This document shows, in pieces, positions 2,983 to 43,484 of a stretch of 64,000 nt of DNA. This stretch comes from an uncultured Planctomycetales bacterium (GTDB taxonomy: Bacteria > Omnitrophota > Gorgyraeia > Zapsychrales > Fredricksoniimonadaceae): the NCBI GenBank assembly GCA_964583975.1, contig CAZOXU010000001.1:35552-99551 (forward strand), given 5' to 3'. The notes under the pieces are model-generated. The model did no database searches, had not been told where the DNA came from, and was given only the letters and a program-made list of their open reading frames with translations. A program made the translations under genes and the position numbers. The stretch's first letter is position 1, and each line of letters opens with the position of its first letter.

Positions 2983-2996
2983 AGTGACCTCCTAAA

Positions 2997-4331
2997 TTAA
3001 TTCCCGCCAGAGGCGGGTCCCTGCCCGTCCGGCAGGCGGGCGCCTTTGGCGGAAAAAAGTTCTTCAATCCTTCCCATCGCATGTGCCAAATTTATTTTTG
3101 CTGTCCAATAAAGCGCCTGGGCCTCATTTTTCTCATCTGTAGCAAGGGCCTTTAAAGATTGAAAGTGATGTGTCTCAAGCCTATCTCCTAAACCTGTTTT
3201 AAGACGATTTTGATTAATCACTACTTGTTCGGTAGCATAGTTCAATTGTTCCACTTTAGCTTTTAAATAAGCCTTGGCTTTTGTCAAACTATCAATAGCT
3301 TTACGGATTTTAATTTGCGACTGCTCTTGAGTATCAGATAAAAGAATTTCATTCTCTTTGATCTTATCATTAGCTTGTCTTAGCCTTGCTTGCTTCGATC
3401 CACCCTCCCAAAAGGGCACGTTGACCGCTAAACCCATACTGTAAGTATTACTTGAAGAACCGACCGACTTGCCTGATCGCCCTAAATCCCCTGCAACAGC
3501 AACCTTAGGTAAAAAACTTCGCTTAATTTCAGCAGCCTCGGCTTTACTTTGGTCTAATTGAGCAAATAATACGGCTTCATCGGGAGTTAAAGGAGCTTGT
3601 TGCAAATCCCTATCTGCCCAGCTCTGGTTTTCTTCAAATACAATAGGTTGATTCAATGGAATTTTTAAGGCTGAAGCTAAATCTAGCTTTGTTTCATTAG
3701 CATAAACTTCTGCTGCTTGATAGGCATATTGGGCCATGACTAAATTCGCTTTTGCCTTATTGAAATCTGCCTGGGAGCCTAGCCCTTGTTTCAGACGCGT
3801 CTCGACAACTTGACTCTGTAGTTTGACTTCATCTAAAGAAACCTGAGCAAGCTCCAAAGCTTGCTGGCCACGCTGCGCTTCAAGAAACATTGCACCGACC
3901 AAAGCCAGGACATCTTGTTTAACCTTAGTTAATTGTGCCTGGGATAATTTCTCACTGGCTCGGGCTGACTTAATACGCCCTACTGCCTCGGGATCAAAAA
4001 TTTCAAGGGTCAGCCTGGCTCGAGTATCAAAACTATTAAATGGCCCAACATGCGGATCACCCGGAATACTAATCCCTGAACTTCGAAGATCTATGGTTTG
4101 CCTTTTTACAGCCAAGGCGCCTGAAACTTGGGGTAGCAAGGCAGCGTTATGAACGGAAATATTATCTAATGCCTGCAAAACTCTCTGATTGGCGACAAGA
4201 ACTTGTGTGTTTTGTTGAGATGCCCTAAACATAGCTTGTTTGAGGTTCAAATGTAACGGCTGCAAATCTTGCGCTTGAGCATTAATTAGATAAAAAAAGA
4301 ATAAAATAAAACTACAAAAAACATTCATCAT
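2997..4331 (-). CDS. TolC-family outer-membrane efflux protein
   Basis: Signal peptide, two tandem TolC-like repeats with coiled coils, 444 aa. The C-terminal tail PDGQGPASGGN is encoded by a GC-rich palindrome. Confidence 0.75.
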   Translation of the reverse strand: MMNVFCSFILFFFYLINAQAQDLQPLHLNLKQAMFRASQQNTQVLVANQRVLQALDNISVHNAALLPQVSGALAVKRQTIDLRSSGISIPGDPHVGPFNSFDTRARLTLEIFDPEAVGRIKSARASEKLSQAQLTKVKQDVLALVGAMFLEAQRGQQALELAQVSLDEVKLQSQVVETRLKQGLGSQADFNKAKANLVMAQYAYQAAEVYANETKLDLASALKIPLNQPIVFEENQSWADRDLQQAPLTPDEAVLFAQLDQSKAEAAEIKRSFLPKVAVAGDLGRSGKSVGSSSNTYSMGLAVNVPFWEGGSKQARLRQANDKIKENEILLSDTQEQSQIKIRKAIDSLTKAKAYLKAKVEQLNYATEQVVINQNRLKTGLGDRLETHHFQSLKALATDEKNEAQALYWTAKINLAHAMGRIEELFSAKGARLPDGQGPASGGN

Positions 4332-4765
4332 GCCTTTCGTTGCCTCATTGATAAACTTAATTTATTAATAATGGCCTGAAATTGTTCCAACTCTTGATTG
4401 TTAAGCACACTCAAAACCTCTACCCATCGTTTGGCGATAATAGATTTAAACAATTTTAAAAATCGATCTGCTTTTGGTGTTAAAGCAATAACTATTTGCC
4501 TTCGATCTTCCAAATGAGGCGATCGTTTAATATACTTGGCTTCAACTAATCGATTAACCAAACCTGTAACCGTAGGCATGCTGACCTTTAAATGAAAGGC
4601 TATATCTGACATCGTACAAGCACCCCTAGCATGCAAAGACACAAGAATCAAAAACTGCGTCTGAGTCATTGAACGCTTGGCAAAAACACCCAAATGCGCA
4701 CCCTGCATAATATGGGGCATTAAAATTGAAATGGCTTGAGCTGTTTGCTCACGTTTGGTGGACAT
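4328..4765 (-). CDS. MarR-family transcriptional regulator
   Basis: 145 aa with a winged-helix core (SDIAFHLKVSMPTVTGLVNRLVEAKYIKR). It is the first gene of the efflux operon and overlaps tolC by 4 nt. Confidence 0.75.
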   Translation of the reverse strand: MSTKREQTAQAISILMPHIMQGAHLGVFAKRSMTQTQFLILVSLHARGACTMSDIAFHLKVSMPTVTGLVNRLVEAKYIKRSPHLEDRRQIVIALTPKADRFLKLFKSIIAKRWVEVLSVLNNQELEQFQAIINKLSLSMRQRKA

Positions 4766-4789
4766 GTATTCTTTAACTCCTGCTAAAGA

Positions 4790-4803
4790 TTAGCATATGC
4801 TAA
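4790..4803. promoter_or_regulatory. Perfect 14-bp palindrome TTAGCATATGCTAA in the marR/PEGA divergent promoter region; candidate MarR operator.
   Basis: Seen directly in sequence, 25 nt upstream of the marR start codon (minus strand). Confidence 0.45.
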
Positions 4804-4874
4804 GTATTATGTCAATTTGAGTTTATATTACTTAATTGACTTGTAGCGACGAATGGATTAAGATTTAACCGTTT

Positions 4875-6119
4875 ATGCCACATTTAAGAAAAATTGTCTT
4901 TTACATCTTTGCCGCCATCTATCTGGTGGTCTGTCCATTGCTAATTTTGCGCTTATTAGGGTTTATTTTTGATCCTCAAACCTATCGATTTGTTAAAACA
5001 GGCATTATTTATGCTTCTAGCAATCCTCCAGGCGCAGACGTTTACGTTAACCATATCCGAGCTCCTGAAACAACCCCTACTGTCATTCGCGACCTTACCC
5101 CCGATAACTACACCATCACATTAAAGCTAGATGGCTACCAAGAGTGGAAAAACACTATTCCGGTAGTAGCACGTAAAGCAACAATCCTTGAAAACATTTT
5201 GCTTACTCCCCCTCAATGGATTATTAAACCGCTTAATGGTACTACTTTTGAGAACATGCTTCCCTTGGGAGAAGAGAGTTCTCTTTTAATCTGGCACAAA
5301 AAAACCGTCAAAGACCTATATCATCTACGTCTTAATAAAACTTCATCAGAAGATATCAACAACAAGATTGAAAGCTCTTTAATATCTCCACTTTTTCCAG
5401 AAGAATTTATCTACAAAGATGCTCAGATAACCCGTTTCTTTACCATTGAAAAAAGTCCTTTTTTCATTATCCATATTGTGGTTGATTCCAAAGACAAATA
5501 TCTATGGATAGATCCCCGAGACCGCCAAGTTCATATTGAAGATATCAGTGACCTCATTCCTCTTGAACCTGACAAAATTTGGTGGGAACCTGGTGATGAG
5601 AAAATTATTTATGTCTACTACCCAACTCAAGTTAACCGCGTTGATATTAAAGCCAAGGCCATTTATCCTGACATTCAACTCAAAGATGTCCCTATCCCCA
5701 AAAAGCCCCTATTTAATGTAGCTAATATAAAAGGCAGCGTACCAGATGAAAATCGAAGCCAATGGCTTTTATTTACCAACACTAAAATTGGCATATGGAA
5801 TAATAGTTCTAAGTCTCTCCTGTGGATTTTTCAAAATGGGCGCAATATTCAAAAAGTTTTCTGGGCCAACAATGCCAGCACAATTCTATTTCAAGATAAC
5901 AAGGACATTTATTTGTTGGATAAGGTCATATTTGGCCAAACACGCATACAAAAAATCACCACGATTCGGGCTGATGCCTCCTTTTTCTATAGTGAAAAAA
6001 CAGGTAAGATTTATTTTATTGAACCTCATGAGAATTTACTTTCGACTGTGCAAGTCTTAAGACATACAGCTCTTTCACCTCGAATCATTGCTGAGAAATT
6101 AAGATTACAGGATCTATAA
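4875..6119 (+). CDS. PEGA-domain membrane-anchored protein
   Basis: N-terminal TM helix, then a PEGA motif block PPGADVYVNHIRAPETTPTVIRDLTPDNYTITLKLDGYQEW. The C-terminal ~300 aa are of unknown fold. Confidence 0.55.
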   Translation: MPHLRKIVFYIFAAIYLVVCPLLILRLLGFIFDPQTYRFVKTGIIYASSNPPGADVYVNHIRAPETTPTVIRDLTPDNYTITLKLDGYQEWKNTIPVVARKATILENILLTPPQWIIKPLNGTTFENMLPLGEESSLLIWHKKTVKDLYHLRLNKTSSEDINNKIESSLISPLFPEEFIYKDAQITRFFTIEKSPFFIIHIVVDSKDKYLWIDPRDRQVHIEDISDLIPLEPDKIWWEPGDEKIIYVYYPTQVNRVDIKAKAIYPDIQLKDVPIPKKPLFNVANIKGSVPDENRSQWLLFTNTKIGIWNNSSKSLLWIFQNGRNIQKVFWANNASTILFQDNKDIYLLDKVIFGQTRIQKITTIRADASFFYSEKTGKIYFIEPHENLLSTVQVLRHTALSPRIIAEKLRLQDL

Positions 6120-6121
6120 AA

Positions 6122-7759
6122 ATGCGCTTTCATTATTCCAAAGAAAACCTAAAACCCAGCGAAGCCCGATGGCAAAGAAGACTAGAAATCCTTCCCGGCT
6201 TGATTAGCTGGAGCACCCTTCTAGGCATGGCTTTTCTGGCCATCTTTTATCCATTTACAGCAGCTATTATTACAATCTCTTTTTACCTATGCTGGCTTCT
6301 AAGACTTTTATACCTGACTCTTTTTCTTCTTCTGTCCTATATCCGCTTAAACATGGAAAACCAGACTAACTGGATGGATCGGGTCCATGATGTTGATCGC
6401 TTAATCAGCAAAGAACCCGAAGTATTATCGATTACCAAAAAATCTTATTCTCTGAAAATGCATCAGCGACAATTGATCAAACTTAAAGAGAGCAAAGAAT
6501 ATTCAGCCTTATCTAAGGATCTTTACCACCTTGTAATCTTTCCTATTATCAAAGAATCAAAAGAGGTCATCGATCCAGCGATTAAAGCCATTAGCCGCCA
6601 ACAATTTCCTTCTAAGCAAATTATTGTTGTCTTTGCCTTGGAAGACAGAGCTGAAGATGTGATTAAAAAAGGAGTTTACGACACCGAAAGTCGCTACAAA
6701 TCATTCTTCTATAATTGTTTTAACGTTGTTCATCCTAGCGATATTCCTGGTGAAGCCCGCGTTAAGGGTGCTAATGTCACTTTTGCAGCCAAAAAAGCAG
6801 CTGAATACATTCACCAACAAAATATCCCTATTGAGAATGTCATCGTTTCGTGTTTTGATGCTGATACGGTGGTGGACGAAGATTATTTCTCCTGTTTGAC
6901 CTATCACTTCATGATTACACCTACTCGCCAGCGAGCCAGCTTCCAACCAATTCCGGTTTATCACAACAATATCTGGCATGTGCCGGGATTTGCTCGTGTG
7001 GTAGAAACAGGTTCGTCATTCTTTCAACTCATTGAAGCGACCAATCCCGAGAGATTGGTAACCTTCTCTTCTCATAGTATGAGTTTCAAAGCTTTAGTGG
7101 ATGTCAACTACTGGCCTGTAGATATGATCTCTGATGATTCGGCTATTTTTTGGAAATGTTACATCCATTATGATGGTAATTATCAAGTCATCCCTATGTA
7201 CGTCACTCTGTCAATGGATATTGTCAGTGCCCGCAACTGGTGGGATACGGTCAAAAGTGTTTATAAACAAAAACGGCGCTGGGCCTGGGGCGTTGAAAAC
7301 ATTCCTTTGGTATTGCGCGGATTTATTAAAAACAAAAAAATTTCATTATGGGAAAGATTTAGGCACGCTTTCAAATTACTCGAAGGCCACTGGTCCTGGG
7401 CCACCTGGGGATTTATGTTGTCTTTCGAAGGATGGCTTACAGCTATTTTTGCTCGGCAAGAATTTACAAGCTCTGTGGTATATTATAATATTCCTCAAAT
7501 TTCAGCCTTAATCTTTAATTTAGCTTCAGGTTGTTTAATTATCTCAATCATTTTAAGCATAGCTCTTCTTCCCAAAGCTGATGTCCGCTATCCTTTCTTA
7601 ATAAAAATCGGTCATGCCTTAGAATGGCTGATGCTTCCTTTCATTCTCGTCTTTTTAAGCGCACTGCCCGCCTTGGATGCTCAAACTCGCTTAATGTTTG
7701 GTAAGTATCTAGAATTCTGGGTCAGCGGTAAAGGAAAAACCAAAAAACGACAAAAATAG
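6122..7759 (+). CDS. Membrane-embedded family-2 glycosyltransferase, processive-synthase type
   Basis: N-terminal TM pair, cytoplasmic GT-A domain with the DxD motif CFDADTVVDEDYF and the Q(K/R)RRW motif (VYKQKRRWAWG), then C-terminal TM helices. Confidence 0.7.
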   Translation: MRFHYSKENLKPSEARWQRRLEILPGLISWSTLLGMAFLAIFYPFTAAIITISFYLCWLLRLLYLTLFLLLSYIRLNMENQTNWMDRVHDVDRLISKEPEVLSITKKSYSLKMHQRQLIKLKESKEYSALSKDLYHLVIFPIIKESKEVIDPAIKAISRQQFPSKQIIVVFALEDRAEDVIKKGVYDTESRYKSFFYNCFNVVHPSDIPGEARVKGANVTFAAKKAAEYIHQQNIPIENVIVSCFDADTVVDEDYFSCLTYHFMITPTRQRASFQPIPVYHNNIWHVPGFARVVETGSSFFQLIEATNPERLVTFSSHSMSFKALVDVNYWPVDMISDDSAIFWKCYIHYDGNYQVIPMYVTLSMDIVSARNWWDTVKSVYKQKRRWAWGVENIPLVLRGFIKNKKISLWERFRHAFKLLEGHWSWATWGFMLSFEGWLTAIFARQEFTSSVVYYNIPQISALIFNLASGCLIISIILSIALLPKADVRYPFLIKIGHALEWLMLPFILVFLSALPALDAQTRLMFGKYLEFWVSGKGKTKKRQK

Positions 7760-7761
7760 AA

Positions 7762-7795
7762 AAACCCCATTCACATTTGAATGAGGCTTTTCAAC
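7762..7795 (+). terminator. Weak rho-independent terminator candidate after the GT2 gene
   Basis: cccattcacatttgaatgagg stem-loop followed by cttttc. Confidence 0.3.
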
Positions 7796-7813
7796 CCAAC
7801 CGGGTTAGGTTTC

Positions 7814-8164
7814 CTAGGCCATAAACACCGATTTACTGGGAGAAACCAACGCAGACTTCCAATGCAATAAAATCCTTAAAGTATGATAATACCCCACCTT
7901 GACCAAACGGCGGTTTCGATTCACATAAAAGAACCCTTTCACACGCATGGTAAACTTCTCATTACGATTTAAGCTATCATAGGATTTACGTACATGGACC
8001 TCTGGCGCGCCAGGGTCTTCTTGCTGATCAACCTCATGGGCTAAATAAAGAAAATTCTTACGAATATCTGATACACATTCTTTATCCTGAGAATGCTCAT
8101 GGATGACAATTCTTTTTCCACGGCCTTTTAAAATTTCTTTTGTCTTATGCAGTACGTCTTTCAT
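7814..8164 (-). CDS. Hypothetical protein, 116 aa
   Basis: An ORF only; I recognise no motif. It is flanked by AT-rich non-coding DNA, with a GC palindrome immediately 5' of its start. Confidence 0.3.
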   Translation of the reverse strand: MKDVLHKTKEILKGRGKRIVIHEHSQDKECVSDIRKNFLYLAHEVDQQEDPGAPEVHVRKSYDSLNRNEKFTMRVKGFFYVNRNRRLVKVGYYHTLRILLHWKSALVSPSKSVFMA

Positions 8165-8371
8165 TTGGTTCCCCCTGCCTGCCAGCAGGCAGGCTATCTA
8201 TTTGCAACTGCTAAACTTATGTTGATTAATAGTTCCCTCATCCCTTACTACTATTGAAAGTATAGCACCTGTCAAGGTCAAAACAAGGCGATTTAGCCTG
8301 TTTTGAGAAAACGTTTTCCTTGTAAGAAACAGCTTAAAATATAAGAAATAAATGTTTATTACTGTTTTTTA

Positions 8372-9004
8372 TTATTTTTTAAAATACGGCAGGTGAACGC
8401 GGTTTTCCTTACCCTGAATTAACCGCGTAATATTGGAACGATGGCGAAAAACGATGAAAATACATAACACAATAGACATAATCTTAAACTCAATAGGGGC
8501 ATCAAAAACAACCATACAAACAGGCAGGCTTATGGCAGCCACAATAGAGGCCAAAGACACATACCCTGACAAGAGGAAAATCACAGCCCACACACCTAAG
8601 ACAATCAATAACACCCAGCGCAATCCAGGTAGCTGAATGGCAAACCCAATTAAAACACCTAAGGTTGTGGCAATACCCTTTCCACCTTTGAAGTTTAAAA
8701 ACACAGTCCAGTTATGCGCAGCAACCGCGATCAAACCATAAACCACCAACATCAAAGGACTGTTAAAACCTGAGAAATTAGCAAAAACAGTGGTGGGAAT
8801 GATCCCTTTTACAATATCTATGATTAAAACAATACTACCAGGCCCTTTACCTAAGACGCGAAAGGCATTGGTAGCCCCCACATTGCCTGAACCATGCTGA
8901 CGAATATCAAGATTCTTCAAGACACGCCCAAAAATATAAGCGGTGGGTACAGCTCCCAATAAATAGGTCACAATAAGACTAATGACTAGCAGAACTATGT
9001 TCAT
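8372..9004 (-). CDS. plsY: Glycerol-3-phosphate acyltransferase PlsY
   Basis: GSGNVGATNAFRVLG signature and a multi-TM topology. Confidence 0.85.
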   Translation of the reverse strand: MNIVLLVISLIVTYLLGAVPTAYIFGRVLKNLDIRQHGSGNVGATNAFRVLGKGPGSIVLIIDIVKGIIPTTVFANFSGFNSPLMLVVYGLIAVAAHNWTVFLNFKGGKGIATTLGVLIGFAIQLPGLRWVLLIVLGVWAVIFLLSGYVSLASIVAAISLPVCMVVFDAPIEFKIMSIVLCIFIVFRHRSNITRLIQGKENRVHLPYFKK

Positions 9005-9548
9005 TGATGGATTGAATCCCTTTTTTAATGTAAATCACACCTGAGATAATTGTTGCTATCAAAGCCAGATACCAAAACACTTTTGTAAACGGCCACTGCA
9101 AAAGCATTCCTAACACACAAACAACTTGCAAAAACGCGGTCGTTTTCCCCGAACGATTCGCTTCCATATCTAATTTGCCTGTGACCAGCTGAACAATCGA
9201 TGCTCCTATAATCAGAATAATATCGCGAGAGATAATGGCAACCACAAACCAAAGAGGAAAAACAATCTCTTCAAAATTCCCTCGACGAATATAAAGGCAA
9301 ATAAAGGCGCTGATTAATAGAATTTTATCAGCCAGTGGATCGAGAATAGCTCCTGCCTTGGTTTTTTGATGAAAAGTGCGAGCCACATACCCATCAATAA
9401 TATCTGAAATAACAGCTGTTAAAAAAAGTCCTAAAGCAACCCAACGTAAATAGGGGCGCTCAGGGGACAAATACAATACAGTAGCAATAAAAAATGGCAC
9501 CAGAAGAATACGTCCAACTGTAACCTTATTAGCAAATGTAAGAGACAT
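8979..9548 (-). CDS. pgsA: CDP-diacylglycerol--glycerol-3-phosphate 3-phosphatidyltransferase (CDP-alcohol phosphatidyltransferase)
   Basis: DGYVAR...GAILDPLADK CDP-OH phosphotransferase motif. Confidence 0.8.
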   Translation of the reverse strand: MSLTFANKVTVGRILLVPFFIATVLYLSPERPYLRWVALGLFLTAVISDIIDGYVARTFHQKTKAGAILDPLADKILLISAFICLYIRRGNFEEIVFPLWFVVAIISRDIILIIGASIVQLVTGKLDMEANRSGKTTAFLQVVCVLGMLLQWPFTKVFWYLALIATIISGVIYIKKGIQSINEHSSASH

Positions 9549-9553
9549 GATTA

Positions 9554-9907
9554 TTATTCATCCACTGATTTTAATTTGACTTTATGTGTCGGACAAACTT
9601 CCACAGACGAATCAAAGCGCTGCCCATCTATAGGACAATATTTCACACCGGTTTGCTGCACACTCAAAGCTCCATTAATAGACTCAACAGCTGATCGAGT
9701 TTTAGGATCCTTTTCTACCTGCACAGCCAAATTCTTCAAATCTTTTTGAGAAATATTTTGATTGGTTAAACCTTCGGTCACGGTGCCAAACGCAGCGATG
9801 GTCTGCGCCATGGATTCTTTTTGAGGGGGAGTTTTTGGTTGAGCACCTTGGCAGCCAACCAAAAAAAGTATGGGTATACAAAAAATAGGATAGATTGATC
9901 GGATCAT
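9554..9907 (-). CDS. Lipoprotein with a C-terminal Cys-pair (zinc-ribbon-like) motif
   Basis: Lipobox LFLVGCQG and a C-terminal YCPIDGQRF...VCPTHKVK. Confidence 0.45.
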   Translation of the reverse strand: MIRSIYPIFCIPILFLVGCQGAQPKTPPQKESMAQTIAAFGTVTEGLTNQNISQKDLKNLAVQVEKDPKTRSAVESINGALSVQQTGVKYCPIDGQRFDSSVEVCPTHKVKLKSVDE

Positions 9908-10563: not shown

Positions 10564-10564
10564 A

Positions 10565-12355
10565 TTAAATTTTTAAAGCAGCCAAGAATGCCTCTTGCGG
10601 GACCTCTACCCGACCGATTTGTTTAAGCTTCTTCTTTCCTTCTTTTTGCTTCTCCCACAATTTTCTTTTACGGGTGATATCTCCCCCATAACACTTAGCA
10701 GTTACATTCTTTCCAGCCGACTTAATTCGAGCACTGGAAATAATTCGCCCATCTGCAGTCGCTTGAATACGGATTTCAAACAATTGTTGGGGAATTAAAT
10801 CTTTAAGTTTACTGACTAAGGCCAAACCCTTGTCATAAGCCCTATCTTTATGGACCATGCAAGAAAAAGCATCACATGGGTCATCGTTAATTAAAATATC
10901 CAACTTAGTGATCTGAGAAGGGATATATTCTTTAAAATCATAGTCGATCGAACCATAACCACGGGTAGCTGATTTAATCAAATCATTAAAATCAACAATA
11001 ACTTCTGATAAAGGAATATCAAAAGTAATCTTCATACGGTCGCCAATAAATTCACTTTTTTGATAAACACCGCGCTTGCGCTTGGTCAATTCCATGACCT
11101 GATCCATATAAGTGACCGGTGTAAAGATAGCAACAGACAGGATTGGTTCTTCAATACGGTTAATTTCTGACCCATTGGGTAAATCTGAAGGGTTTTCTAA
11201 GTCCATCACACTGCCATCACGTTTAATAATTTTATACCCAACGTTCGGAGTTGTTAAAATGAGATTCAAATCATATTCACGTTCCAGACGTTCTTGCACA
11301 ATTTCCATATGCAATAACCCTAAAAATCCACACCGAAACCCATGTCCGAAAGACAAGGATGTTTCATGTTCATAGGTAAAACTAGGATCTGATAATCGCA
11401 ACTTATCAATTGCCTCTCGCATGGTTGCATAATCGCCCGCATTGACGGGATAAACACCGCAAAAAACAAAAGGCTTTAATTGACGATACCCATCTAAAGG
11501 CTGGGCTGTTGGATTAGAGACTTCGGTTACAGTGTCACCTACACGCACTTCTTTAGGATCATGCAAATTACAGGTAAGATAACCAACTTCACCAGCGGCT
11601 AGTTGCTTAACTGTCTGGGCTGTAGGAGCAAATACTCCTACTTCTTGTACAACAAATTCCGTACCAACGTTCATAAAACGAATCTTGGTGTCCGGCTTGA
11701 TCGTTCCTTCCATAATTCGAACATAAATAATGATCCCTTTATAGATATCATACTTCATATCGAAAATGAGCGCTTTAAGCGGAGCCTCAACATTGGCTTC
11801 AGGAGGCGGGATAAACGACACAATCTTCTCAAACAACAAATCAATATTGATACCCTCTTTGGCTGATACCAATTGAACATCTTCGGGTTTAAACTTCAGA
11901 ATGTCCTTAAACTGACGCTTGGCTTCATCAATATCAGCGTTAGCAATATCAATTTTGTTAATGACAGGCAAAATTTCAAGATTATTGTCAATGGCCAGAT
12001 AATAATTGGCAATGGTCTGAGATTCTACACCTTGAGTCACATCAATAAGGAGTAAGGCACCTTCACAGGCGCGCAAAGATTTCTCTACTTCATAAGAAAA
12101 GTCCACGTGGCCCGGAGTATCAATGAGGTTTAAAATATAATTCTTTCCATCCTTGGCTTTATAGTTTAAACGCACCGCAGAGGCTTTGATCGTAATTCCT
12201 CGTTCACGCTCCAAATCCATATCATCAAGCATTTGATTACGAAACTTACGTTCATCAATAGCTCCTGCAAAAAGCATAAGCCGATCAGCCAAGGTGCTTT
12301 TGCCGTGATCAATATGAGCTATGATGGAAAAGTTACGGATATTTGATTGGGACAT
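10565..12355 (-). CDS. lepA: Elongation factor 4 (LepA)
   Basis: N-terminal IRNFSIIAHIDHGKSTL, GTPase motifs and a LepA-specific C-terminal domain; 596 aa. Confidence 0.95.
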   Translation of the reverse strand: MSQSNIRNFSIIAHIDHGKSTLADRLMLFAGAIDERKFRNQMLDDMDLERERGITIKASAVRLNYKAKDGKNYILNLIDTPGHVDFSYEVEKSLRACEGALLLIDVTQGVESQTIANYYLAIDNNLEILPVINKIDIANADIDEAKRQFKDILKFKPEDVQLVSAKEGINIDLLFEKIVSFIPPPEANVEAPLKALIFDMKYDIYKGIIIYVRIMEGTIKPDTKIRFMNVGTEFVVQEVGVFAPTAQTVKQLAAGEVGYLTCNLHDPKEVRVGDTVTEVSNPTAQPLDGYRQLKPFVFCGVYPVNAGDYATMREAIDKLRLSDPSFTYEHETSLSFGHGFRCGFLGLLHMEIVQERLEREYDLNLILTTPNVGYKIIKRDGSVMDLENPSDLPNGSEINRIEEPILSVAIFTPVTYMDQVMELTKRKRGVYQKSEFIGDRMKITFDIPLSEVIVDFNDLIKSATRGYGSIDYDFKEYIPSQITKLDILINDDPCDAFSCMVHKDRAYDKGLALVSKLKDLIPQQLFEIRIQATADGRIISSARIKSAGKNVTAKCYGGDITRKRKLWEKQKEGKKKLKQIGRVEVPQEAFLAALKI

Positions 12356-12369
12356 ATCTTTACTTACAT

Positions 12370-12447
12370 GTCATTCCCGAATGTTTTAATCGGGAATCTA
12401 GAACTTTCTAATTCCTGGGTCCCCGACTAAAACTTTGGGGACGACAT
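12370..12447. repeat. Double-hairpin intergenic repeat, copy A (GTCAT-YCCCGAAT stem-loop-CTAG-second stem-loop-GACGAC)
   Basis: gtcattcccgaatgttttaatcgggaatctag...gtccccgactaaaactttggggacgacat. It exactly fills the cmk-stop to lepA-start gap. Confidence 0.7.
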
Positions 12448-13122
12448 CTATATTTTTATATACTTCATAATAACATCAACACTTTGTTCCACGTTAAGTC
12501 CTGAGGAATCAATAGTGATGGCATCGTCTGCTTTTTTTAATGGACCAACGGCCCGTGTAAAATCTTTCTGGTCACGCTCATGCATATCTTTTTTTAAATC
12601 TTCAATATTGACTTGTTTCCCAGCAGCTTGAAGTTCTTTTAATCGACGCATGGCACGTTCTTCAAAGTCCGCATCAACATAAAATTTATAATTAGCTTGA
12701 GGAAATACAACTGTCCCCTGGTCTCGGCCATCAGTCACCAAAGAACGTCTGGAAGCAATATCCCTCTGCCATTTAACCATGAGCTCTCGGACTCCAGCTG
12801 TACGGGCAGGATAAAAGGTATTGTTGGTAACTTCCGAGCTTCTTATGTCTTGGGCTACATCTTGGCCATCTAAGGTCACATTCATACTACCATCAGGAGA
12901 TTCTTTAAAATCAATCACAGTCTTTTTAGCTAAATCTGTCAGAGCCCCTTCATCTTCTAGATTAACTTTTAATCGAAGAGCCTTAAGGGTCAACGCCCGA
13001 TACATAGCGCCAGTATCCAGATAAGAAATCCCCAATCGTCGGGCCAGACCTTTAGCAACAGTGCTTTTACCCGCCCCGGCTGGACCATCAAGTGTAATAA
13101 CTAAGTGTTTATGTTTTTCCAT
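12448..13122 (-). CDS. cmk: Cytidylate kinase
   Basis: ITLDGPAGAGKSTVAKGLARRLG P-loop and the Cmk fold. Confidence 0.9.
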   Translation of the reverse strand: MEKHKHLVITLDGPAGAGKSTVAKGLARRLGISYLDTGAMYRALTLKALRLKVNLEDEGALTDLAKKTVIDFKESPDGSMNVTLDGQDVAQDIRSSEVTNNTFYPARTAGVRELMVKWQRDIASRRSLVTDGRDQGTVVFPQANYKFYVDADFEERAMRRLKELQAAGKQVNIEDLKKDMHERDQKDFTRAVGPLKKADDAITIDSSGLNVEQSVDVIMKYIKI

Positions 13123-13981
13123 GCGAACCTTCTATGCTTTCTCGTTTAGCTTTGGCAGCTTTAAAAATTTCTTCTAACACAGCTGCATCCGAAGTAACAA
13201 TGGCCTTACGGATGGCAGCTAAAACCTTCACCGTTTCATCTACAGATTTAAGTACATTCTTTTGATTAGATAACACGATATCACGCCAAATGCTTGCATC
13301 CGACGAGGCAATGCGAGTCATGTCGCGTAAGCCTTGCGGAGCTAATTCCAGATGTTGATCTGGGACGGCTTTCATCAAACTAAATGCAATCATATGTGGC
13401 AGATGACTGACAAAAGCTAAACTCTCATCATGTTCTTGAGGAGACATGGTCTTGACTTGTGTTCCCAATTGTGACCAAAAGTGTTTTATTTTTTCTTTAG
13501 CTAAACGATTAGTCTTATCGGTTGGCGTCATGATACAGCTGGCATTTTCATACAAATTAGCATTAGCATAGGTTGGACCTTTTTTCTCAGAACCGACCAA
13601 AGGATGAGATCCTACAAAAAGCACAGAATGATGTAACACCTTTTCTGCTTTCTCAACAATGGCATGCTTGGTACTGCCTAGATCGGTCACAATACAACCA
13701 CGCTGATGTTCTTTAGCCAAAAAATCTAGGGATTCTAAAATAGCGTTCACAGGAGTGGCTAACACAATGAGATCGGCACCAATAATACCTTTTTTAATGT
13801 CCAAAAAACTCTCATCAATGGCCCCAACATCGGTCGCTTCTCTTAAAGCAGTTTCGTGACGGCCAATCCCAACAACCTGACTCGCCAGGGCTTTCTTTTT
13901 GATGGCCAACCCCAAAGAAGCACCCATGAATCCTGTTCCTACAATAGCAACTCGACGAAATAATTGTTTTCGATTAAACAT
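13109..13981 (-). CDS. tyrA: Prephenate (arogenate) dehydrogenase
   Basis: Rossmann motif VAIVGTGFMGASL and the TyrA catalytic region HPLVGSE. Confidence 0.8.
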   Translation of the reverse strand: MFNRKQLFRRVAIVGTGFMGASLGLAIKKKALASQVVGIGRHETALREATDVGAIDESFLDIKKGIIGADLIVLATPVNAILESLDFLAKEHQRGCIVTDLGSTKHAIVEKAEKVLHHSVLFVGSHPLVGSEKKGPTYANANLYENASCIMTPTDKTNRLAKEKIKHFWSQLGTQVKTMSPQEHDESLAFVSHLPHMIAFSLMKAVPDQHLELAPQGLRDMTRIASSDASIWRDIVLSNQKNVLKSVDETVKVLAAIRKAIVTSDAAVLEEIFKAAKAKRESIEGSHGKT

Positions 13982-13996
13982 AGTGTTCCTTAAATT

Positions 13997-15016
13997 TTAT
14001 AGATCTCTATCCACGGCTTGAGCTACGCGTTTACAAGAAACCATTAATTCGGCAAACTTATCTGGCATGAGTGACTGGGCTCCATCAGAAAGAGCTTCTT
14101 CTGGATTATCATGCACTTCAATCATTAAAGCATCACAACCAACGGCAATTCCAGCTCTTGCACCTGCAGCCACATATTCCCAACTTCCAGTTCCGTGGCT
14201 CGGATCAACAACGACTGGCAAATGAGTTAATTTCTTAGCCACCGCCACAGCATTAACATCCAATGTGTTACGGGTAGCTGTTTCAAATGTACGGATACCA
14301 CGCTCACAAAGCATGACATCAAAATTTCCATGAGCCAAAAGATACTCAGCTGACATTAACCATTCTTTGACCGTTGTCGACATACCACGTTTGAGCATCA
14401 CCGGTTTTTTAGAAGCACCAACTTCTTTTAACAACGAGAAGTTCTGCACATTACGTGCGCCAATTTGCAAAATATCGACATACTTAGCCACCAATTCCAC
14501 CTGACGCGTATCCATAACTTCAGAAATCGTACAGATGCTTTCTTCACGGCCAACTTGCTGAAGGATCTTTAAACCTTCTTCTCCCATGCCTTGAAAATCA
14601 TAAGGTGATGTGCGAGGTTTAAATGCGCCACCACGTAAAATATTCGCTCCTTGCTTTTTAATCATCTTGGCAAGCGACTTCATGCCATCATAACTTTCAA
14701 TCGAACAAGGACCTGCCATCACCGCTATTTTCTTGCCTCCCACCTGAGTATTAAATGGAAGCTTAATAATAGTGTCCTGACCTTTTTTAAACTCACGAGA
14801 AACCAGCTTGTAAGGAGCTAATACTTGAAGAACTTGCTCGACCCCAGGAAACACTTCTAAGGGGATCTCACGAAGAGCATCTTCTTTACCAATAAATCCT
14901 ATGACCGTGCGCTCAATACCTCGCGACACATTACTTTTAAGTCCTAGTTTGTTTGCACGATCAACAATATGCTGGATCTGTGCCTCGGTTGCATCCGAAC
15001 GTAAAATAACTATCAT
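13997..15016 (-). CDS. aroF: 3-deoxy-7-phosphoheptulonate (DAHP) synthase, type I-beta, with an N-terminal ferredoxin-like regulatory domain
   Basis: DAHPS/KDO8PS TIM-barrel motifs (KPRTSPY, GARN, VVVDPSHG) preceded by a ~70-aa ACT/ferredoxin-like N-domain. The aromatic gene neighbourhood favours DAHPS over KDO8PS. Confidence 0.7.
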   Translation of the reverse strand: MIVILRSDATEAQIQHIVDRANKLGLKSNVSRGIERTVIGFIGKEDALREIPLEVFPGVEQVLQVLAPYKLVSREFKKGQDTIIKLPFNTQVGGKKIAVMAGPCSIESYDGMKSLAKMIKKQGANILRGGAFKPRTSPYDFQGMGEEGLKILQQVGREESICTISEVMDTRQVELVAKYVDILQIGARNVQNFSLLKEVGASKKPVMLKRGMSTTVKEWLMSAEYLLAHGNFDVMLCERGIRTFETATRNTLDVNAVAVAKKLTHLPVVVDPSHGTGSWEYVAAGARAGIAVGCDALMIEVHDNPEEALSDGAQSLMPDKFAELMVSCKRVAQAVDRDL

Positions 15017-15064
15017 ACTTCCTCCTGTAATGTACGGGCGGGTTCTAAACCCACCCTATATTTA

Positions 15065-16162
15065 TCAGGCAGGTTTGGAACCTGCCACTACACCTTGTAA
15101 TGTTTTTATGAATCTCTTATTTTCTGGCGCTGTTCCAATTGATACTCGAATATAATCTGACAATCCCCAGACTGCCATGTCACGAATAATGACTCCTTTT
15201 TTCAAAAGGGCCTGGGCCACTGCAGAAGCATTTCTCACTTTCACTAATATAAAATTCGTATGACTCTCTTCATGTCTTAATCCCAAATCTTGCAAGCTCT
15301 GATAAATATATTGACGCTGACGTTCAACGTCTTGGGCAATGCGACGATAATAACCCTGATCAGACAAGGCAGCCACCGCAGCTACCTGGGCCATGGAATT
15401 GACATTAAAAGGTTCACGTAAACGATTTAGAATATCAATAATGTTCGGGGCGCCAATCCCATAACCTACACGCAACCCTGCTAAACCATACATCTTTGAA
15501 AAGGTGCGAATGGTCATTAAATTGGGGTATTTCTTCATGAGCTTAAGAGTGTCAGGGTAATCCTTGGCATGCACGTATTCAAAATAAGCTTCATCAAAAA
15601 ATACCAGAGTGTCCTTGCCTACAGCCTTCATAAAATCCTCGGCTTCTTTGGCATTAATATAACTACCCGCTGGATTATCAGGATTTCCAATAAACACAAT
15701 CTTAGTGTTCTTAGTTAATTTAGCTTTCATGCCGGCTAGATCATAGCGAAAATTCTTTAAAGGTACTTCATGGATGCGGGCACCTGCCAGACGACAGGCA
15801 ATTTCATAGATTAGAAAAGAAGGTTTAGCAATGATAACCTCATCACCTTTACCTACAAAAGCTTTAACAGCTAAGACGATAATTTCATCTGAGCCATTAC
15901 CAAAGATTAATTGATTTTCATTGATTTTAAGGTGTCGCGCCAGGGTCTGACGCAGCACAAAGCATCCGCCATCAGGGTAACGGTTAATCTCTTTAGCCGC
16001 TTTACTTAAAGCTGCAAGCACCTTAGGTGATGGTGGATAGGGATTTTCATTCGAAGCAAGCTTGATCACACTGCTTAATTTCAGCTCACGTTTGACTTCT
16101 TCAATGGGTTTTCCCGGAACATAGGGCTTAATGTCAAAAATATACTTATTAGCAACCTGCAC
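15065..16162 (-). CDS. hisC: Histidinol-phosphate / aromatic-amino-acid aminotransferase (class II PLP enzyme)
   Basis: HisC-family fold with PLP lysine region TFSKMYGLAGLRVGY. It sits between pheA and the DAHPS gene, suggesting an aromatic aminotransferase role. Confidence 0.8.
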   Translation of the reverse strand: MQVANKYIFDIKPYVPGKPIEEVKRELKLSSVIKLASNENPYPPSPKVLAALSKAAKEINRYPDGGCFVLRQTLARHLKINENQLIFGNGSDEIIVLAVKAFVGKGDEVIIAKPSFLIYEIACRLAGARIHEVPLKNFRYDLAGMKAKLTKNTKIVFIGNPDNPAGSYINAKEAEDFMKAVGKDTLVFFDEAYFEYVHAKDYPDTLKLMKKYPNLMTIRTFSKMYGLAGLRVGYGIGAPNIIDILNRLREPFNVNSMAQVAAVAALSDQGYYRRIAQDVERQRQYIYQSLQDLGLRHEESHTNFILVKVRNASAVAQALLKKGVIIRDMAVWGLSDYIRVSIGTAPENKRFIKTLQGVVAGSKPA

Positions 16163-16207
16163 TTTAGTTAAATCCTTCTTAAATATAGATTTATAAAGGA
16201 AGGATGC

Positions 16208-17269
16208 CTACTCTATGACCGGATAGGAACCGAGGATTTTCAGGAATTTGCACATGCCTTCTAACTGTTTTAAGGCACGTTTGACATGAGGAGAGTCTTG
16301 ATGACCTTCAAGATCAATGAAAAAATAATAATCCCAGGCCCTTTTCTTAGATGGTCTGGATTCTATCTTGGTAAGATTGATTTTATTTCTGGAAAATGGG
16401 GTCAACATGGCATGCAAAGCCCCCACCTTGTCTTTGATGGAAAACACCAAGGAAGTACGATCTTTACCTGTAGGTGGCGTATCACTGTTAGAAAGCACTA
16501 AAAATCGCGTAATATTATGAGCTCTATCTTGGATATTCTTCTTTACGATATTTAAGCCGTACAACGAAGCAGCAATTTCTGAACCAATGCAGGCTATCTT
16601 TTTATTTTTAGAAGCTAATTGAGCAGCCTTGGTAGTGGAATCTGCTCCAACTACAGGAACGCCAGGCAAATTCTTCAAAAGCCATTGACGACACTGACCC
16701 AATACCTGAGGATGAGAACAGACCTGAGTTACACCTTTCAATGATCCCTTGGCCATCAAATTATGCGAAATATCCAACAAAATTTGAGAACAAATCTTAA
16801 GATCAGAATCGACCAAAAGATCAATCGTATGCGTCACCACACCTTCAATTGAATTTTCAATAGGAACAACGCCATAATCGCAATCGCCGTGCTCCACCTT
16901 GCTAAAAATTTCCGAAACATTATCACAAGACACATGCTCAACAGAAGATCCAAATCTCTTAAGGGCTGCTAAATGTGAGAAGGTCGCTTCAGGACCCAAA
17001 TAAGCAATACGTAAGGGTTTCTCTAAAGCTAAGGAAGCAGACATAATTTCTCGATAGATGGCTTCCAGCGCCTCTTTATTCAAAGGGCCCTTGCTTAATT
17101 GTTGAATGCGATCGAGCACCTGCTTTTCGCGGGCAGGAGCGTAAATCGAAGCTTTATTTTTAATCTTGTGCTGACCAACCTCTAAGGTAATGGCTGCTCT
17201 TTGATTAAGAAGCTCAACAATTCGGGAATCTAAGGCATCAATCTTTTTTCTTAAATGTTGTAGATCCAT
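16208..17269 (-). CDS. pheA: Bifunctional chorismate mutase / prephenate dehydratase
   Basis: N-terminal CM domain (LRKKIDALDSRIVELLNQRA), a PDT domain and a C-terminal ACT domain. Confidence 0.85.
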   Translation of the reverse strand: MDLQHLRKKIDALDSRIVELLNQRAAITLEVGQHKIKNKASIYAPAREKQVLDRIQQLSKGPLNKEALEAIYREIMSASLALEKPLRIAYLGPEATFSHLAALKRFGSSVEHVSCDNVSEIFSKVEHGDCDYGVVPIENSIEGVVTHTIDLLVDSDLKICSQILLDISHNLMAKGSLKGVTQVCSHPQVLGQCRQWLLKNLPGVPVVGADSTTKAAQLASKNKKIACIGSEIAASLYGLNIVKKNIQDRAHNITRFLVLSNSDTPPTGKDRTSLVFSIKDKVGALHAMLTPFSRNKINLTKIESRPSKKRAWDYYFFIDLEGHQDSPHVKRALKQLEGMCKFLKILGSYPVIE

Positions 17270-17272
17270 ATA

Positions 17273-17971
17273 TTAATTGCTTGCTGTATTTTCTTGAGGC
17301 ACTTCAGCCTCTACTCTTGATTGTCCACTTGTTTCTTGAGCAACTGTCTCGAGTGTTTCTGTCACTGGAGCACTGGCAGTCTGTGGGATTGGTCCAATAT
17401 TATCATTAGCACCAGCCACAATCACTGTTCCCTCAGTTGGAGTTAATTGAGATAGTTGTTCTAATTTAGGCAAATCTTCTAAAGACTTTAAACCGAAATA
17501 TTCTAAAAATGCTTTAGTAGTCCCATAAAGAAATGGACGACCAGCGACTTCTTTGCGGCCAACAATTTCAATAAGTCCTTTATTTAATAAATGAGCGACC
17601 GGGCCGTCACAGTTAACGCCACGGATGACTTCCAAATCCCCACGGCTAACGGGTTGCTTATAAGCAATAATTGCTAGCAGCTCTAAAGCTGCGCGTGACA
17701 ATTTCTCTTTGGACTTAGTTTTATAGAATTCGCGAATATATCCAGCTGCATTGCTATTAGAAAGCATTTGCCATCCACCAGCGATATCTACAATCACTAT
17801 CCCTGCCTCGCGATTCACATATGCTTCTTGAAGCTCTTTAACAAGACCTGAAATCTCAGCGGGTTTAAGTTCTGGAAAAACTGTTTTAAATTGCTCTAAC
17901 ACAACTGGTTTATCACTTACAAATAACAAGGCTTCAATACCGCTTTTATAAAGTTGTAATTGGGCGTCCAT
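17273..17971 (-). CDS. scpB: Segregation and condensation protein B
   Basis: Tandem winged-helix ScpB domains (EALLFVSDKPV..., ...GRPFLYGTT). Confidence 0.8.
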   Translation of the reverse strand: MDAQLQLYKSGIEALLFVSDKPVVLEQFKTVFPELKPAEISGLVKELQEAYVNREAGIVIVDIAGGWQMLSNSNAAGYIREFYKTKSKEKLSRAALELLAIIAYKQPVSRGDLEVIRGVNCDGPVAHLLNKGLIEIVGRKEVAGRPFLYGTTKAFLEYFGLKSLEDLPKLEQLSQLTPTEGTVIVAGANDNIGPIPQTASAPVTETLETVAQETSGQSRVEAEVPQENTASN

Positions 17972-17989
17972 TATTTTAAAGTCCTCTGT

Positions 17990-18631
17990 TTATCCCCTCA
18001 TGCCGGGGACTTTTCGTTGGTTGTAAATTTCGTTTAACAATTCTTCAGATGTCATAATTTTACTGTTTCGTTCAACTGCTTTTTGGATCATTTCTTGCGC
18101 TTCAGCTCGTTTATATTGCAATTGTAACAAAATATTTAAGGCTTCTTCCTCTATATCTAATAAATTTAATTTAGGTCTGGTTTCAACGACCTTATCACGA
18201 ATGAGCGTGTATTTGCCCATCTTGCTTTGCAGTTTGGCCACAATTTCCTTGGCCTTCTGCTCGCCTATACCAGGCAAAGTCTTTAAATATTTAGTATCGG
18301 CACGATCGATGGCTTGAGCAATTTCACCAATCGATTTATTCAATGCTTTGACCGCAGCCCGAGGCCCAATTCCTGACACCTTAATAAAGTCGAGGAAGAA
18401 ATCCCGCTCAACTTCATTTAAAAAACCCACCAAAATCTCATTAGCACTGGCCGGGGTTATCTGTAAATAATGATACGTAATTAAGCTGACATTGCCATCG
18501 CTATCTTGATTTTCTTGCAAACGTTGTAAAACAGACGCTGAAACAAAAACCTCGTAGCTTAACGCCCCCGTATCGACGATCACGGTGTTTTCTAAATATT
18601 GAGTAATCTTTCCCTTAATAGATGCAATCAT
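17990..18631 (-). CDS. ruvA: Holliday junction branch-migration complex subunit RuvA. The start was moved to MIASIKGKI because the upstream Met lies inside repeat copy B.
   Basis: RuvA OB-fold N-domain, HhH motifs (LPGIGEQKAKEI) and a C-terminal RuvB-binding domain. The last 5 codons are encoded by a small GC palindrome. Confidence 0.85.
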   Translation of the reverse strand: MIASIKGKITQYLENTVIVDTGALSYEVFVSASVLQRLQENQDSDGNVSLITYHYLQITPASANEILVGFLNEVERDFFLDFIKVSGIGPRAAVKALNKSIGEIAQAIDRADTKYLKTLPGIGEQKAKEIVAKLQSKMGKYTLIRDKVVETRPKLNLLDIEEEALNILLQLQYKRAEAQEMIQKAVERNSKIMTSEELLNEIYNQRKVPGMRG

Positions 18632-18641
18632 GCTGTCCTCT

Positions 18642-18709
18642 GTCATTCCCGAATATTTTAATCGGGAAACTAGTGCTCTAGGTCCCCAATAAATACATTC
18701 GGGGACGAC
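18642..18709. repeat. Double-hairpin intergenic repeat, copy B
   Basis: gtcattcccgaatattttaatcgggaaactag...gtccccaataaatacattcggggacgac, between ruvC and ruvA. Confidence 0.7.
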
Positions 18710-19958: not shown

Positions 19959-20003
19959 TGTAAAAACCTCCTAAGTACTATTATTCACTTCCGTTGATAA
20001 AAA

Positions 20004-43438: not shown

Positions 43439-43484
43439 CTCCTACTTAATATCCTCTGCCTACCGGCAGACAAGTTCAAACGCT

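Follow-up and report, generated by a model that had tools for sequence, protein, structure and literature searches.

Rickettsia palindromic elements (RPEs) are repeats of ~105-146 bp (PMC3184786) carrying a CGTC tag (PMC3733652), and the papers that cite their original description place these palindromic repeats in frame in intact protein genes and also in RNA genes (Ogata et al. 2000, as cited in PMC3184786 and PMC3733652). Here we compare RPEs and other small repeat systems with GC-rich mini-palindromes found in a 64-kb stretch of DNA (64,000 nucleotides of contig CAZOXU010000001.1, in the following simply the window), among them a 30-nt double hairpin (dh). Like RPEs, the dh is inserted both in frame and in RNA genes, adds a short peptide, extends gene ends and is variably present among relatives. 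Unlike RPEs, which are confined to Rickettsia, it measures 15-30 nt instead of 105-146 bp, shows neither the RPE consensus nor the CGTC tag, is flanked by TTT and AAA, occurs in Omnitrophota and Patescibacteria, and is linked to a small open reading frame (ORF) of the GIY-YIG type. We know of no dedicated transposase for RPEs.

Repetitive extragenic palindromic (REP) sequences and REPINs are short GC-rich stem-loops with 6-9-bp stems and minimal loops, which form inverted doublets and are in some cases intragenic, in replication and repair genes (PMC3733652). The dh is likewise a short GC-rich palindrome in an inverted doublet, with 15-nt units and 6-bp stems joined tail to tail into 30 nt. 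In contrast to REPs, its units are of half the size, its hairpins abut without a spacer, the GTAG or CGTC tag is missing, and 40% of the copies among the matches listed are intragenic, while REPs are predominantly extragenic. The first-pass annotation of the window had likened the palindromes to REPs, but strict REP membership of the dh therefore fails. So far no link of the dh to REP-associated tyrosine transposases (RAYTs) was seen, and no Y1 transposase profile search of the dh loci was made.

Similar architectures are found in mitochondria, where double hairpin elements (DHEs) and GC clusters are described from Allomyces and other chytrids, from Schizosaccharomyces, from sponges (as repetitive hairpin elements, RHEs) and from yeast (PMC10085805, PMC2800124, PMC4478555). 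In both cases two adjacent short GC-rich hairpins are dispersed, with presence/absence differences, through an AT-richer genome; DHEs lie in intergenic regions, in rRNA genes and occasionally in coding sequence, and copies identical across species suggest mobility or transfer, the mechanism of DHE spread being unexplained. In one Allomyces case, a mobile endonuclease ORF with a duplicated gene end is reportedly involved. It is by architecture that the dh can be likened to DHEs. DHEs are organellar, with a fungal-mitochondrial residence that the dh does not share, whereas the dh occurs in bacteria, free-living or episymbiotic, from at least two phyla, has a regular 15+15 nt build, is often read in frame, and stands in a context of tRNA remnants and GIY-YIG ORFs.

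For this last context, the closest precedent is SegB of phage T4, a free-standing GIY-YIG homing endonuclease encoded in a tRNA gene cluster, whose cleavage in a tRNA gene drives co-conversion or amplification of the flanking tRNA region (PMC2330249, PMC13096335). A small GIY-YIG ORF among tRNA genes, with tRNA duplications beside it, is an analogous arrangement. SegB, however, is encoded by a phage, is larger, includes a DNA-binding domain and has no hairpin element, whereas the putative nuclease ORF described here has ~80 aa, consists of the catalytic domain only, is chromosomal, and is accompanied by tRNA remnants bearing a dh or a dh-like hairpin pair. The layout of a homing cassette, with the ORF beside its target and duplicated or converted flanks, was found in related loci only. 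As to RNA genes, Vioque (1997) is said to have described STRR repeats in the RNase P RNA genes of heterocystous cyanobacteria, as heptamer tandem repeats in P12. Short genomic repeats are thus tolerated in a peripheral part of the RNase P RNA gene there as well as here, where the insert is a 30-nt dh between the 5' strands of P10 and P11 and not a tandem array of heptamers in P12.

Searching the literature by sequence, taxon and concept, with incomplete coverage that leaves room for an earlier description, we found none of the dh or of its GIY-YIG/tRNA context, and the mini-palindrome family is apparently undescribed. The palindromes are insertions, copies of defined families that are patchily present at identical sites, and they are tolerated in frame and in RNA genes. 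In related genomes, they are tightly associated with tRNA-gene remnants and a small GIY-YIG ORF. We consider it likely that the GC-rich mini-palindromes belong to a superfamily of ultra-short palindromic, probably selfish elements, possibly spread via breaks made by GIY-YIG nucleases.

The double hairpin and its exact insertions

The window has a GC content of ~40%, its genes point to a Candidatus Omnitrophota bacterium, and its tRNA-Met and tRNA-Val genes are intact. The nearest genome among those compared is the metagenome-assembled genome JBGAJA01, in which the gene order is the same and YebC is 88% identical. Perfect GC-rich hairpins were counted with a stem of at least 6 bp, a GC content of at least 80% and a loop of 3-7 nt, and 10 were observed, compared to 1.23 ± 1.05 in 100 dinucleotide shuffles (maximum 4 per shuffle). 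The arms YCNGCC...GGCNGR are common to most of them. Their core, CNGCC-N3-GGCNG, has five matches in the window, in four of which both outer pairs are complementary (0.3 expected), and in 1.18 Mb of DNA from Omnitrophota relatives the same was seen in 25 of the 55 core matches with a 3-nt loop (3.4 expected). Regarding the recurrence of CCTGCC that the first-pass annotation had pointed out, the palindromic pairing is indeed enriched, whereas the hexamers CCTGCC and GGCAGG as such show no excess in the window.

The defined unit is a 15-nt hairpin composed of [T/C]C-N-GCC, a 3-nt loop and GGC-N-G[A/G]. It is mostly found in tail-to-tail inverted pairs, the dh, with the consensus TCCGCC-NRA-GGCGGA + YCNGCC-TYN-GGCNGR, typically between TTT and AAA. 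The window holds three dh copies, at the 3' end of tolC (where the copy is split), in the RNase P RNA gene and in a 1498-aa ORF; with up to 3 mismatches allowed, the 30-nt pattern matched the window twice and the 100 shuffles not at all. An exact-pattern scan of metagenome contigs, in which hairpin 1 is fixed, detected the dh in at least 120 stretches, on contigs with a GC fraction of 0.30-0.69. In the 124 copies among the matches listed, hairpin 2 can pair at its free stem positions in 116 (~15 expected) and come in five stem variants. Loop 1 reads NRA and loop 2 TYN. T was found at the flank positions -3 to -1 in 69, 103 and 86 copies, and A at +1 to +3 in 69, 98 and 69, so that a T-run precedes and an A-run follows the dh on both strands.

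The minimum-free-energy fold of the 36-mer is a single long hairpin, which was rejected as the constrained form. The loops show no mutual covariation, being exact reverse complements of each other in 14 of the listed copies against ~13 expected, and in half of these copies the hairpin-2 stem mismatches hairpin 1 and yet is internally perfect. Because the loops do not covary, the constrained form is that of two hairpins, an inverted pair of one asymmetric unit. Outside the metagenomes, no dh was matched in 5,426 E. coli genomes and no full-length dh in 72,556 plasmids. A viral origin is unsupported, with the dh present in just 14 stretches among 2.9 million viral contigs.

The first-pass annotation had concentrated on positions 3003 to 18010. 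Insertions in this range were confirmed, as described below, while the two clearest family members lie outside it. The first (20227-20256, minus strand) reads TCCGCCAAAAGCGGA CCAGCCTTTGGCTGG and stands between GAGGATT and AGAGCTACAG in the gene for bacterial type A RNase P RNA (20000-20372, minus strand; Rfam RNaseP_bact_a, 135 bits). It is placed between the 5' strands of P10 and P11, where the gene has 54 nt and the Rfam model 13. At this site, most of 73 relatives show an uninterrupted GGAT[TC]|AGAGC[TC]ACAG. One related locus (L001) has the same 30-nt insert as the window, and in seven others (L007, L020, L029, L030, L031, L039 and L047) the insert consists of two longer hairpins with the same stem bases. 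When the site states, read from the relatives' sequences, were placed on a neighbour-joining tree built on YebC, RuvA and RuvC, the site was filled in nine lineages that are scattered over the tree, each with insert-free close relatives. Such a pattern comes either from repeated insertion at this one site or from repeated exact loss.

Other features of this RNA were observed as well. In the window, cmscan aligns 5 nt for P13/P14 (47 nt expected) and 13 nt for P12 (28 nt expected), and the specificity domain may be reduced. The modelled 5' end overlaps the 3' end of an RNase HI-like ORF (20304-20756). In L019, L024, L041, L043, L051, L065 and L066, the helix after P8 (P9 position) has grown to 60-130 nt as an imperfect palindrome of repeats such as GTGTTAAGTGTCAAGTGT, which is a second kind of expansion, unrelated to the dh.

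The second clear copy (22623-22652, plus strand; TCCGCCAAAGGCGGA CCAGCCTCTGGCTGG) reads TCCGCC-AAA-GGCGGA CCAGCC-TCT-GGCTGG and is located in frame in the 1498-aa ORF (22479-26975, minus strand), where it encodes PARGWSAFGG. The site is filled in the window and, by a related insert, in L061; L001 shows an exact 10-codon gap, and the insert is missing also from L010 and L015. The two copies lie on opposite strands and are identical at 28 of 30 positions, with 0 matches in shuffles. At neither of these exact 30-nt insertions was a duplicated flank detected. Together with the orthologue comparisons reported below, this in-frame insertion supports what the first-pass annotation had proposed for the palindromes in general, namely RPE-like elements inserted in frame or at gene ends.

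A further mini-palindrome of the same ORF, CCTGCC-tcgtc-GGCAGG (26731-26747, minus strand), encodes PASSAG in a length-variable linker, at which L001 has a different hairpin, GGCAGGG-ctcg-CCCTGCC. The ORF itself resembles its L001 counterpart (21-8225, a frame of ~8.2 kb) only in the first ~390 and the last ~110 residues. Its conserved N-terminal module (LIKYFLA..T.PE.D.WVNLSPYEKDRI..) is seen again in several paralogues per locus in L021, and Pfam gave only a weak Glucosamine_iso match.

Gene-end hairpins and a second palindrome family

Four hairpin features had originally been listed as mini-palindromes at gene boundaries. All of them were found in the sequence, and the ORF translations confirm that three encode the C-terminal tails of TolC, HisC and RuvA. 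The four are heterogeneous and not of one kind: the TolC feature is a dh with a nested hairpin, the palindrome at 8174 belongs to a separate 20-nt family, the HisC feature is a distinct two-hairpin unit, and that of RuvA is a weak 5-bp hairpin. When the C-termini of TolC, HisC and RuvA orthologues were aligned, the tails were missing from the orthologues, just as an origin by insertion predicts. Overall, insertion was shown at every site compared (big ORF, RNase P RNA, TolC, hisC/aroF, ruvA/scpB and the 8174 untranslated region). Since the inserts hit stop/start overlaps (ATGA, TAATG) and the upstream ORF reads on to the next stop, the C-terminal tails are by-products. At these former overlaps, the inserts also space out a new ribosome-binding site (RBS) for the downstream gene.

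In the case of tolC, the TolC-like OEP ORF (2997-4331, minus strand) ends in ...GARLPDGQGPASGGN. The tail is encoded by a composite insert (3003-3053, minus strand), a canonical dh, TCCGCCAAAGGCG|GACCCGCCTCTGGCGGG, which a 21-nt piece interrupts near the centre and splits into halves at 3003-3019 and 3041-3053. This piece (3020-3040, minus strand) is a nested mini-palindrome, CCTGCC-ggacg-GGCAGG (17 nt + 4 nt); the tolC dh was thus itself hit at its own centre. Without positions 3020-3040, the insert reads TCCGCCAAAGGCGGACCCGCCTCTGGCGGG and is identical, at 30 of 30 positions, to the dh of the Omnitrophota locus L219. The CCTGCC-N5-GGCAGG type of the nested palindrome is seen again at 26731 and in L022, L028, L116 and L158. 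Twelve TolC orthologues stop at ...LF(D/S)xK, and the 15-residue hairpin-encoded tail is present in the window protein only. In the nearest genome (L201), the tolC end reads TTTTCCGCCAAT, and next comes an ATGA in which the stop overlaps the start of the following gene. As RNA, the insert folds into a nested hairpin (-35.2 kcal/mol, z -3.5). Separately, the tail SAKDGSASAEYK of the TolC orthologue P0005 resembles a decayed dh-encoded SAKGG-SASGG-K. Judging by this likeness, the tolC-end insertion may be older than the split of the window species and that of P0005, and may be eroding at unequal rates.

In the case of hisC, the HisC-like ORF (15065-16162, minus strand) ends in ...VAGSKPA. The two-hairpin unit at the hisC/aroF junction (15037-15087, minus strand) is composed of GGCAGGTT-cca-AACCTGCC, an 11-nt AT spacer and GGGTGGGTT-tag-AACCCGCCC, and the HisC tail AGSKPA* comes from its first hairpin. 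The ~50 HisC orthologues end in ...L(K/G)E(V/I)L, with a stop that overlaps the aroF ATG (..ATGA..). Compared to these relatives, the window has ~70 extra nt, which contain both hairpins and lie between direct repeats, matching at 13 of 17 positions, of the ancestral hisC end (ACATTACAAGGTGTAGT ... ACATTACAGGAGGAAGT); the diverged copy now provides the aroF RBS. Such a flank repeat was observed at this unit only, whereas the RNase P and big-ORF sites show neither the terminal inverted repeats nor the target-site duplication of miniature inverted-repeat transposable elements. GTAG is found directly 5' of the unit. Its RNA fold is stable (-28.3 kcal/mol, z -5.2), and no further copies were found in ~2 Mb of compared DNA. 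Quite different palindromic inserts were seen at the same junction in other lineages (L002 at ~13,800-13,900, L061 and L030), for example GTCATTGCGAGCGTAGCGAAGCAATC...GATTGCTTCGTCAC...CTCGCAATGAC in L002. It seems that this former stop/start overlap is a hot spot at which several repeat families insert.

In the case of ruvA, the RuvA ORF (17990-18646, minus strand) ends in ...VPGMRG, with the tail PGMRG encoded by the 5-bp hairpin TCCCC-ggcatga-GGGGA (17993-18009, minus strand) in a ruvA/scpB spacer of ~40 nt. The ~70 RuvA orthologues end 1-3 residues past ...IYKQRK, and their stop overlaps the scpB ATG. The spacer is common to the window and L017 only (TCCTCggtatgaGGGGAtaaaca), and L017 reads another frame. 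The RNA fold of the hairpin has a z of -2.7. No link to the dh family could be made, and its membership is uncertain.

The remaining feature, the 20-nt palindrome CCTGCCTGCCAGCAGGCAGG (8174-8193, unstranded), does abut the start of a 116-aa ORF (7814-8164, minus strand), lying 10 nt upstream of its ATG. It is part of a ~45-nt insert in the 5' untranslated region that is missing from the nearest genome, where the promoter-like cttgacaggtg.tatactt upstream of the insert is conserved. The ORF has no Pfam match. Its length and its position between plsY and a glycosyltransferase gene are conserved in the nearest genome (L201, 6157-6507), and with the promoter-like box upstream this indicates a real gene.

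The palindrome at 8174 belongs to a second family, CCTGCCTGCCGGCAGGCAGG, with copies in L007, L018, L061, L124, L149 (twice), L196 and L210. Its habits are the same as those of the dh: the L061 copy is inside the RNase P RNA, and one L149 copy is in the D-loop of a tRNA fragment beside a GIY-YIG ORF. The CCTGCC...GGCAGG relatives of this family in the window are those at 3020, 8174, 26731 and 43455. The last of these, TCTGCC-ggta-GGCAGA (43455-43470, minus strand, z -3.95), is intergenic, between the ORFs 43485-44081 (minus strand) and 41660-43438 (minus strand), and shares loop and stem type with CCTGCC-ggta-GGCAGG of L018 and L210.

tRNA remnants and a small GIY-YIG ORF

Among the matches listed, 52 of 130 dh copies were located inside long ORFs, compared to 48% of random positions, some running with the gene and some against it. 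No reading frame of the unit contains a stop, and 36 of these 52 intragenic copies are read in the SAxGG-SAxGG frame. DnaE, GatB, PGI, UvrC and RNase R are hosts confirmed by Pfam, while RecG, RseP, a Mur ligase and a CCA-adding enzyme were judged by eye. About one seventh of the listed copies lie at most 50 nt from a tRNA gene, and a second copy of that gene, complete or partial, holds them in its D-, anticodon or T-loop. Approximately 12-15% of the listed copies are at the apex of a longer stem; a flank duplex of -10 kcal/mol or lower was calculated for 14.5%, compared to 2.6% with permuted flanks. A stem apex is a frequent dh context and not the rule. A test for T-shaped junctions, in which an outer stem continues the dh, gave no excess over permuted flanks, because TTT/AAA dominates the flanks. 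As a single example, a full-length tRNA-Leu(TAA)-like gene of L162 (2380-2820, minus strand) carries a 30-nt dh at CTT|AAAA of its anticodon loop and adjoins both an intact copy and a 3'-half copy.

The 1.95 Mb compared contain 14 small ORFs (~80 aa) that match the GIY-YIG catalytic domain (Pfam PF01541, E about 1e-15), and 7 of these 14 are within 115 nt of a dh. In an independent test, homologues of one small GIY-YIG ORF were collected, giving 168 matches, with those named coming from Omnitrophota and several Patescibacteria, and six loci were picked by protein homology, contig size and name alone. All six show the same layout, with a tRNA copy or fragment bearing a dh or a dh-like hairpin pair, next the GIY-YIG ORF, and last an intact tRNA of the same kind. 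The hairpin pair is in or next to a tRNA loop in each. One of the loci has these components in reverse order, and one shows tandem amplification of the dh-bearing fragment. As the background density in Omnitrophota DNA is about one dh per 130 kb, this architecture in six of six loci is not a coincidence.

Some details of these loci deserve mention. In L225 (1850-2250), the amplified fragment is the 3' part of a tRNA-Lys, downstream of the GIY-YIG ORF. At least two copies are present there and one copy each in L224 and L227; hence its number varies between samples of one population. In L218 (1930-2295), from an Omnitrophota genome, an ORF of the 23S_rRNA_IVP family (PF05635) directly follows the GIY-YIG/tRNA-Val module. 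Contigs with the small GIY-YIG ORF are mostly very short (0.4-3 kb), which suggests that assemblies break at the tRNA/dh/GIY-YIG modules.

A possible mechanism can be outlined as follows. A nuclease, for which the ~80-aa free-standing GIY-YIG endonuclease would be the best candidate, would break the DNA at a T|A step. Frequently, this step would be situated in a loop, where the sequence can fold into a stem-loop, for instance in the D-, anticodon or T-loop of a tRNA, at a hairpin apex or at an RNase P junction. The break would be healed by copying an existing TTT-dh-AAA copy, without target duplication, by way of homing or microhomology-templated repair, and the dh would possibly shield the site from re-cleavage. 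Tolerance inside genes would come from the unit being open in all frames and mostly read as Ser-Ala-x-Gly-Gly. In a bolder version, which is conceivable and in our opinion rather doubtful, this would be a new mobile system of Omnitrophota and Patescibacteria: a tRNA-homing GIY-YIG endonuclease with a dh that heals or immunises the break sites and is copied to T|A look-alikes genome-wide. The catalytic-domain-only protein would home into tRNA genes and leave an intact copy and a remnant. The SAxGG-SAxGG inserts in DnaE, GatB, RecG, UvrC and RNase R, the extra RNase P RNA helices and the spacers between formerly overlapping genes would be further products of such a system.

Alternative explanations and implications

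Several points weigh against mini-palindromes that move as selfish elements. Mobility is deduced from presence and absence between species, and the same distribution would arise if an old insert had been lost precisely and repeatedly. The metagenome pattern fixes hairpin 1, and its evidence comes only from the free positions. The occurrence of the same stems in at least two phyla, together with the stem covariation, could reflect selection for a factor-bound hairpin, and the RNase P inserts, kept and even lengthened in several lineages, may have a function there. The bias for the SAxGG frame may come partly from the TTT|AAA target, in which one frame creates TAA. Within the 64-kb window, the GIY-YIG gene was not found, and the nuclease link rests on other genomes; no transposase was found either, none of the 20 window ORFs scanned with Pfam being a Y1 and no search being aimed at Y1. 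Finally, no connection to the dh family could be established for the hisC/aroF unit or the ruvA hairpin, and the hisC unit, with its flank repeats and GTAG, may be a different, REP-like element.

The GTAG directly 5' of the first hairpin of this unit is also in line with a different explanation, according to which the palindromes are REP/REPIN-type elements that were moved as single-stranded DNA by a RAYT or an IS200/IS605-like Y1 (HUH) transposase recognising the hairpins, with the GIY-YIG link incidental. Y1 transposases insert without target duplication and prefer hairpin loops or single-stranded DNA, which would suit the sites described above. Short GC-rich units with 6-9-bp stems, tiny loops and inverted pairs are as in REPs and REP doublets, and intragenic REPs in replication and repair genes are on record (PMC3733652). 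Nevertheless, we hold this explanation to be unlikely. The flanks of the 124 listed dh copies are TTT and AAA, with no GTAG or CGTC tag, the intragenic fraction of 40% does not fit, and the recurrent neighbour gene in the contexts read is the GIY-YIG ORF, Y1 transposases not having been searched systematically.

Alternatively, the hairpins could be functional RNA selected in place, as mRNA 3'-end stabilisers, processing sites, translational decouplers or RNase P modules, bound by a conserved factor. Several copies are indeed exactly at junctions of formerly overlapping genes, with a new RBS, and the RNA folds are stable (z from -2 to -5). The RNase P inserts were retained and extended in several lineages, the stems covary, and the RNase P copy of L001 keeps its pairing via G-U (GGTGGA). 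What makes a selected RNA quite improbable is that the same 30-mer is found within genes for housekeeping proteins, in either direction, and in fragments of dead tRNA genes, that close relatives lack the insert at every site compared, and that the coding copy of L061 has a C-A mismatch on the sense strand. No Rfam family matches the dh: at the gathering threshold, the window and 15 dh-bearing loci gave matches to RNase P RNA and tRNAs only. The suggestion of the first-pass annotation that RNA stabilisers overlap the stop codons received no support, because U-tracts are missing on the transcribed strand and the same unit occurs in ORFs and RNA genes both ways round. Intrinsic terminators were rejected as well: the window count of terminator-like signatures (25 versus 18.1 ± 4.4 in shuffles) shows no excess, and the T-tails of the window mini-hairpins are weak or on the wrong strand.

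The dyad symmetry of the dh, with its four GGCGGA half-sites, and its presence both within and outside coding sequence, with about one copy in some tens of kb, would also fit DNA binding sites, scattered irrespective of coding, for a chromosomal protein that acts as a dimer or tetramer, like those of partition, macrodomains or nucleoid occlusion. This is very unlikely, given that the sites originate by exact 30-nt insertion and not by point substitution, that they occur in contigs of 30-69% GC from at least two phyla and are concentrated in tRNA remnants beside a nuclease gene, and that the covariation within the hairpins at variable stem positions fits pairing and not a fixed sequence read by a protein.

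Chance palindromes from GC-rich codons (Pro, Ala, Gly, Arg) in an AT-rich genome, the artefact that the first-pass annotation had itself named as its refutation, can hardly be believed in, since the enrichment over shuffles is 8-fold, copies lie in RNA genes and untranslated regions, and the encoded residues are missing from orthologues, a comparison that refutes chance for the main sites; it does hold for 26873-26887 (TGCCCGAGCCGGGCA), which was discarded as an element since its palindrome results from the codons of the conserved LPxPGT motif (here LPEPGT), and possibly for the palindrome at 42858-42876 and the weak ruvA hairpin.

If the mini-palindromes are indeed insertions of probably selfish elements, a 30-nt sequence would shape genes on a wide scale in two large groups of bacteria, most of them uncultivated, where it would add peptides to essential enzymes and helices to RNase P RNA and would uncouple overlapping genes. 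Annotation pipelines and protein alignments now take such inserts for native sequence. In practice, the dh is a simple diagnostic marker, and it may be a cause of contig breaks in metagenome assemblies. It would also be a bacterial counterpart to the unexplained GC clusters and DHEs of mitochondria and to the RPEs of Rickettsia. Since the dh has a concrete candidate enzyme, the tiny GIY-YIG nuclease, the question of how mini-palindromes move becomes testable. Should the bolder version with a tRNA-homing endonuclease be true, no smaller structured mobile DNA than the dh would be known from bacteria, and the dh would have a protein as its partner. The layout of tRNA remnant, nuclease and intact tRNA suggests a homing system aimed at tRNA genes, which bears on tRNA gene amplification and genome stability in streamlined bacteria.

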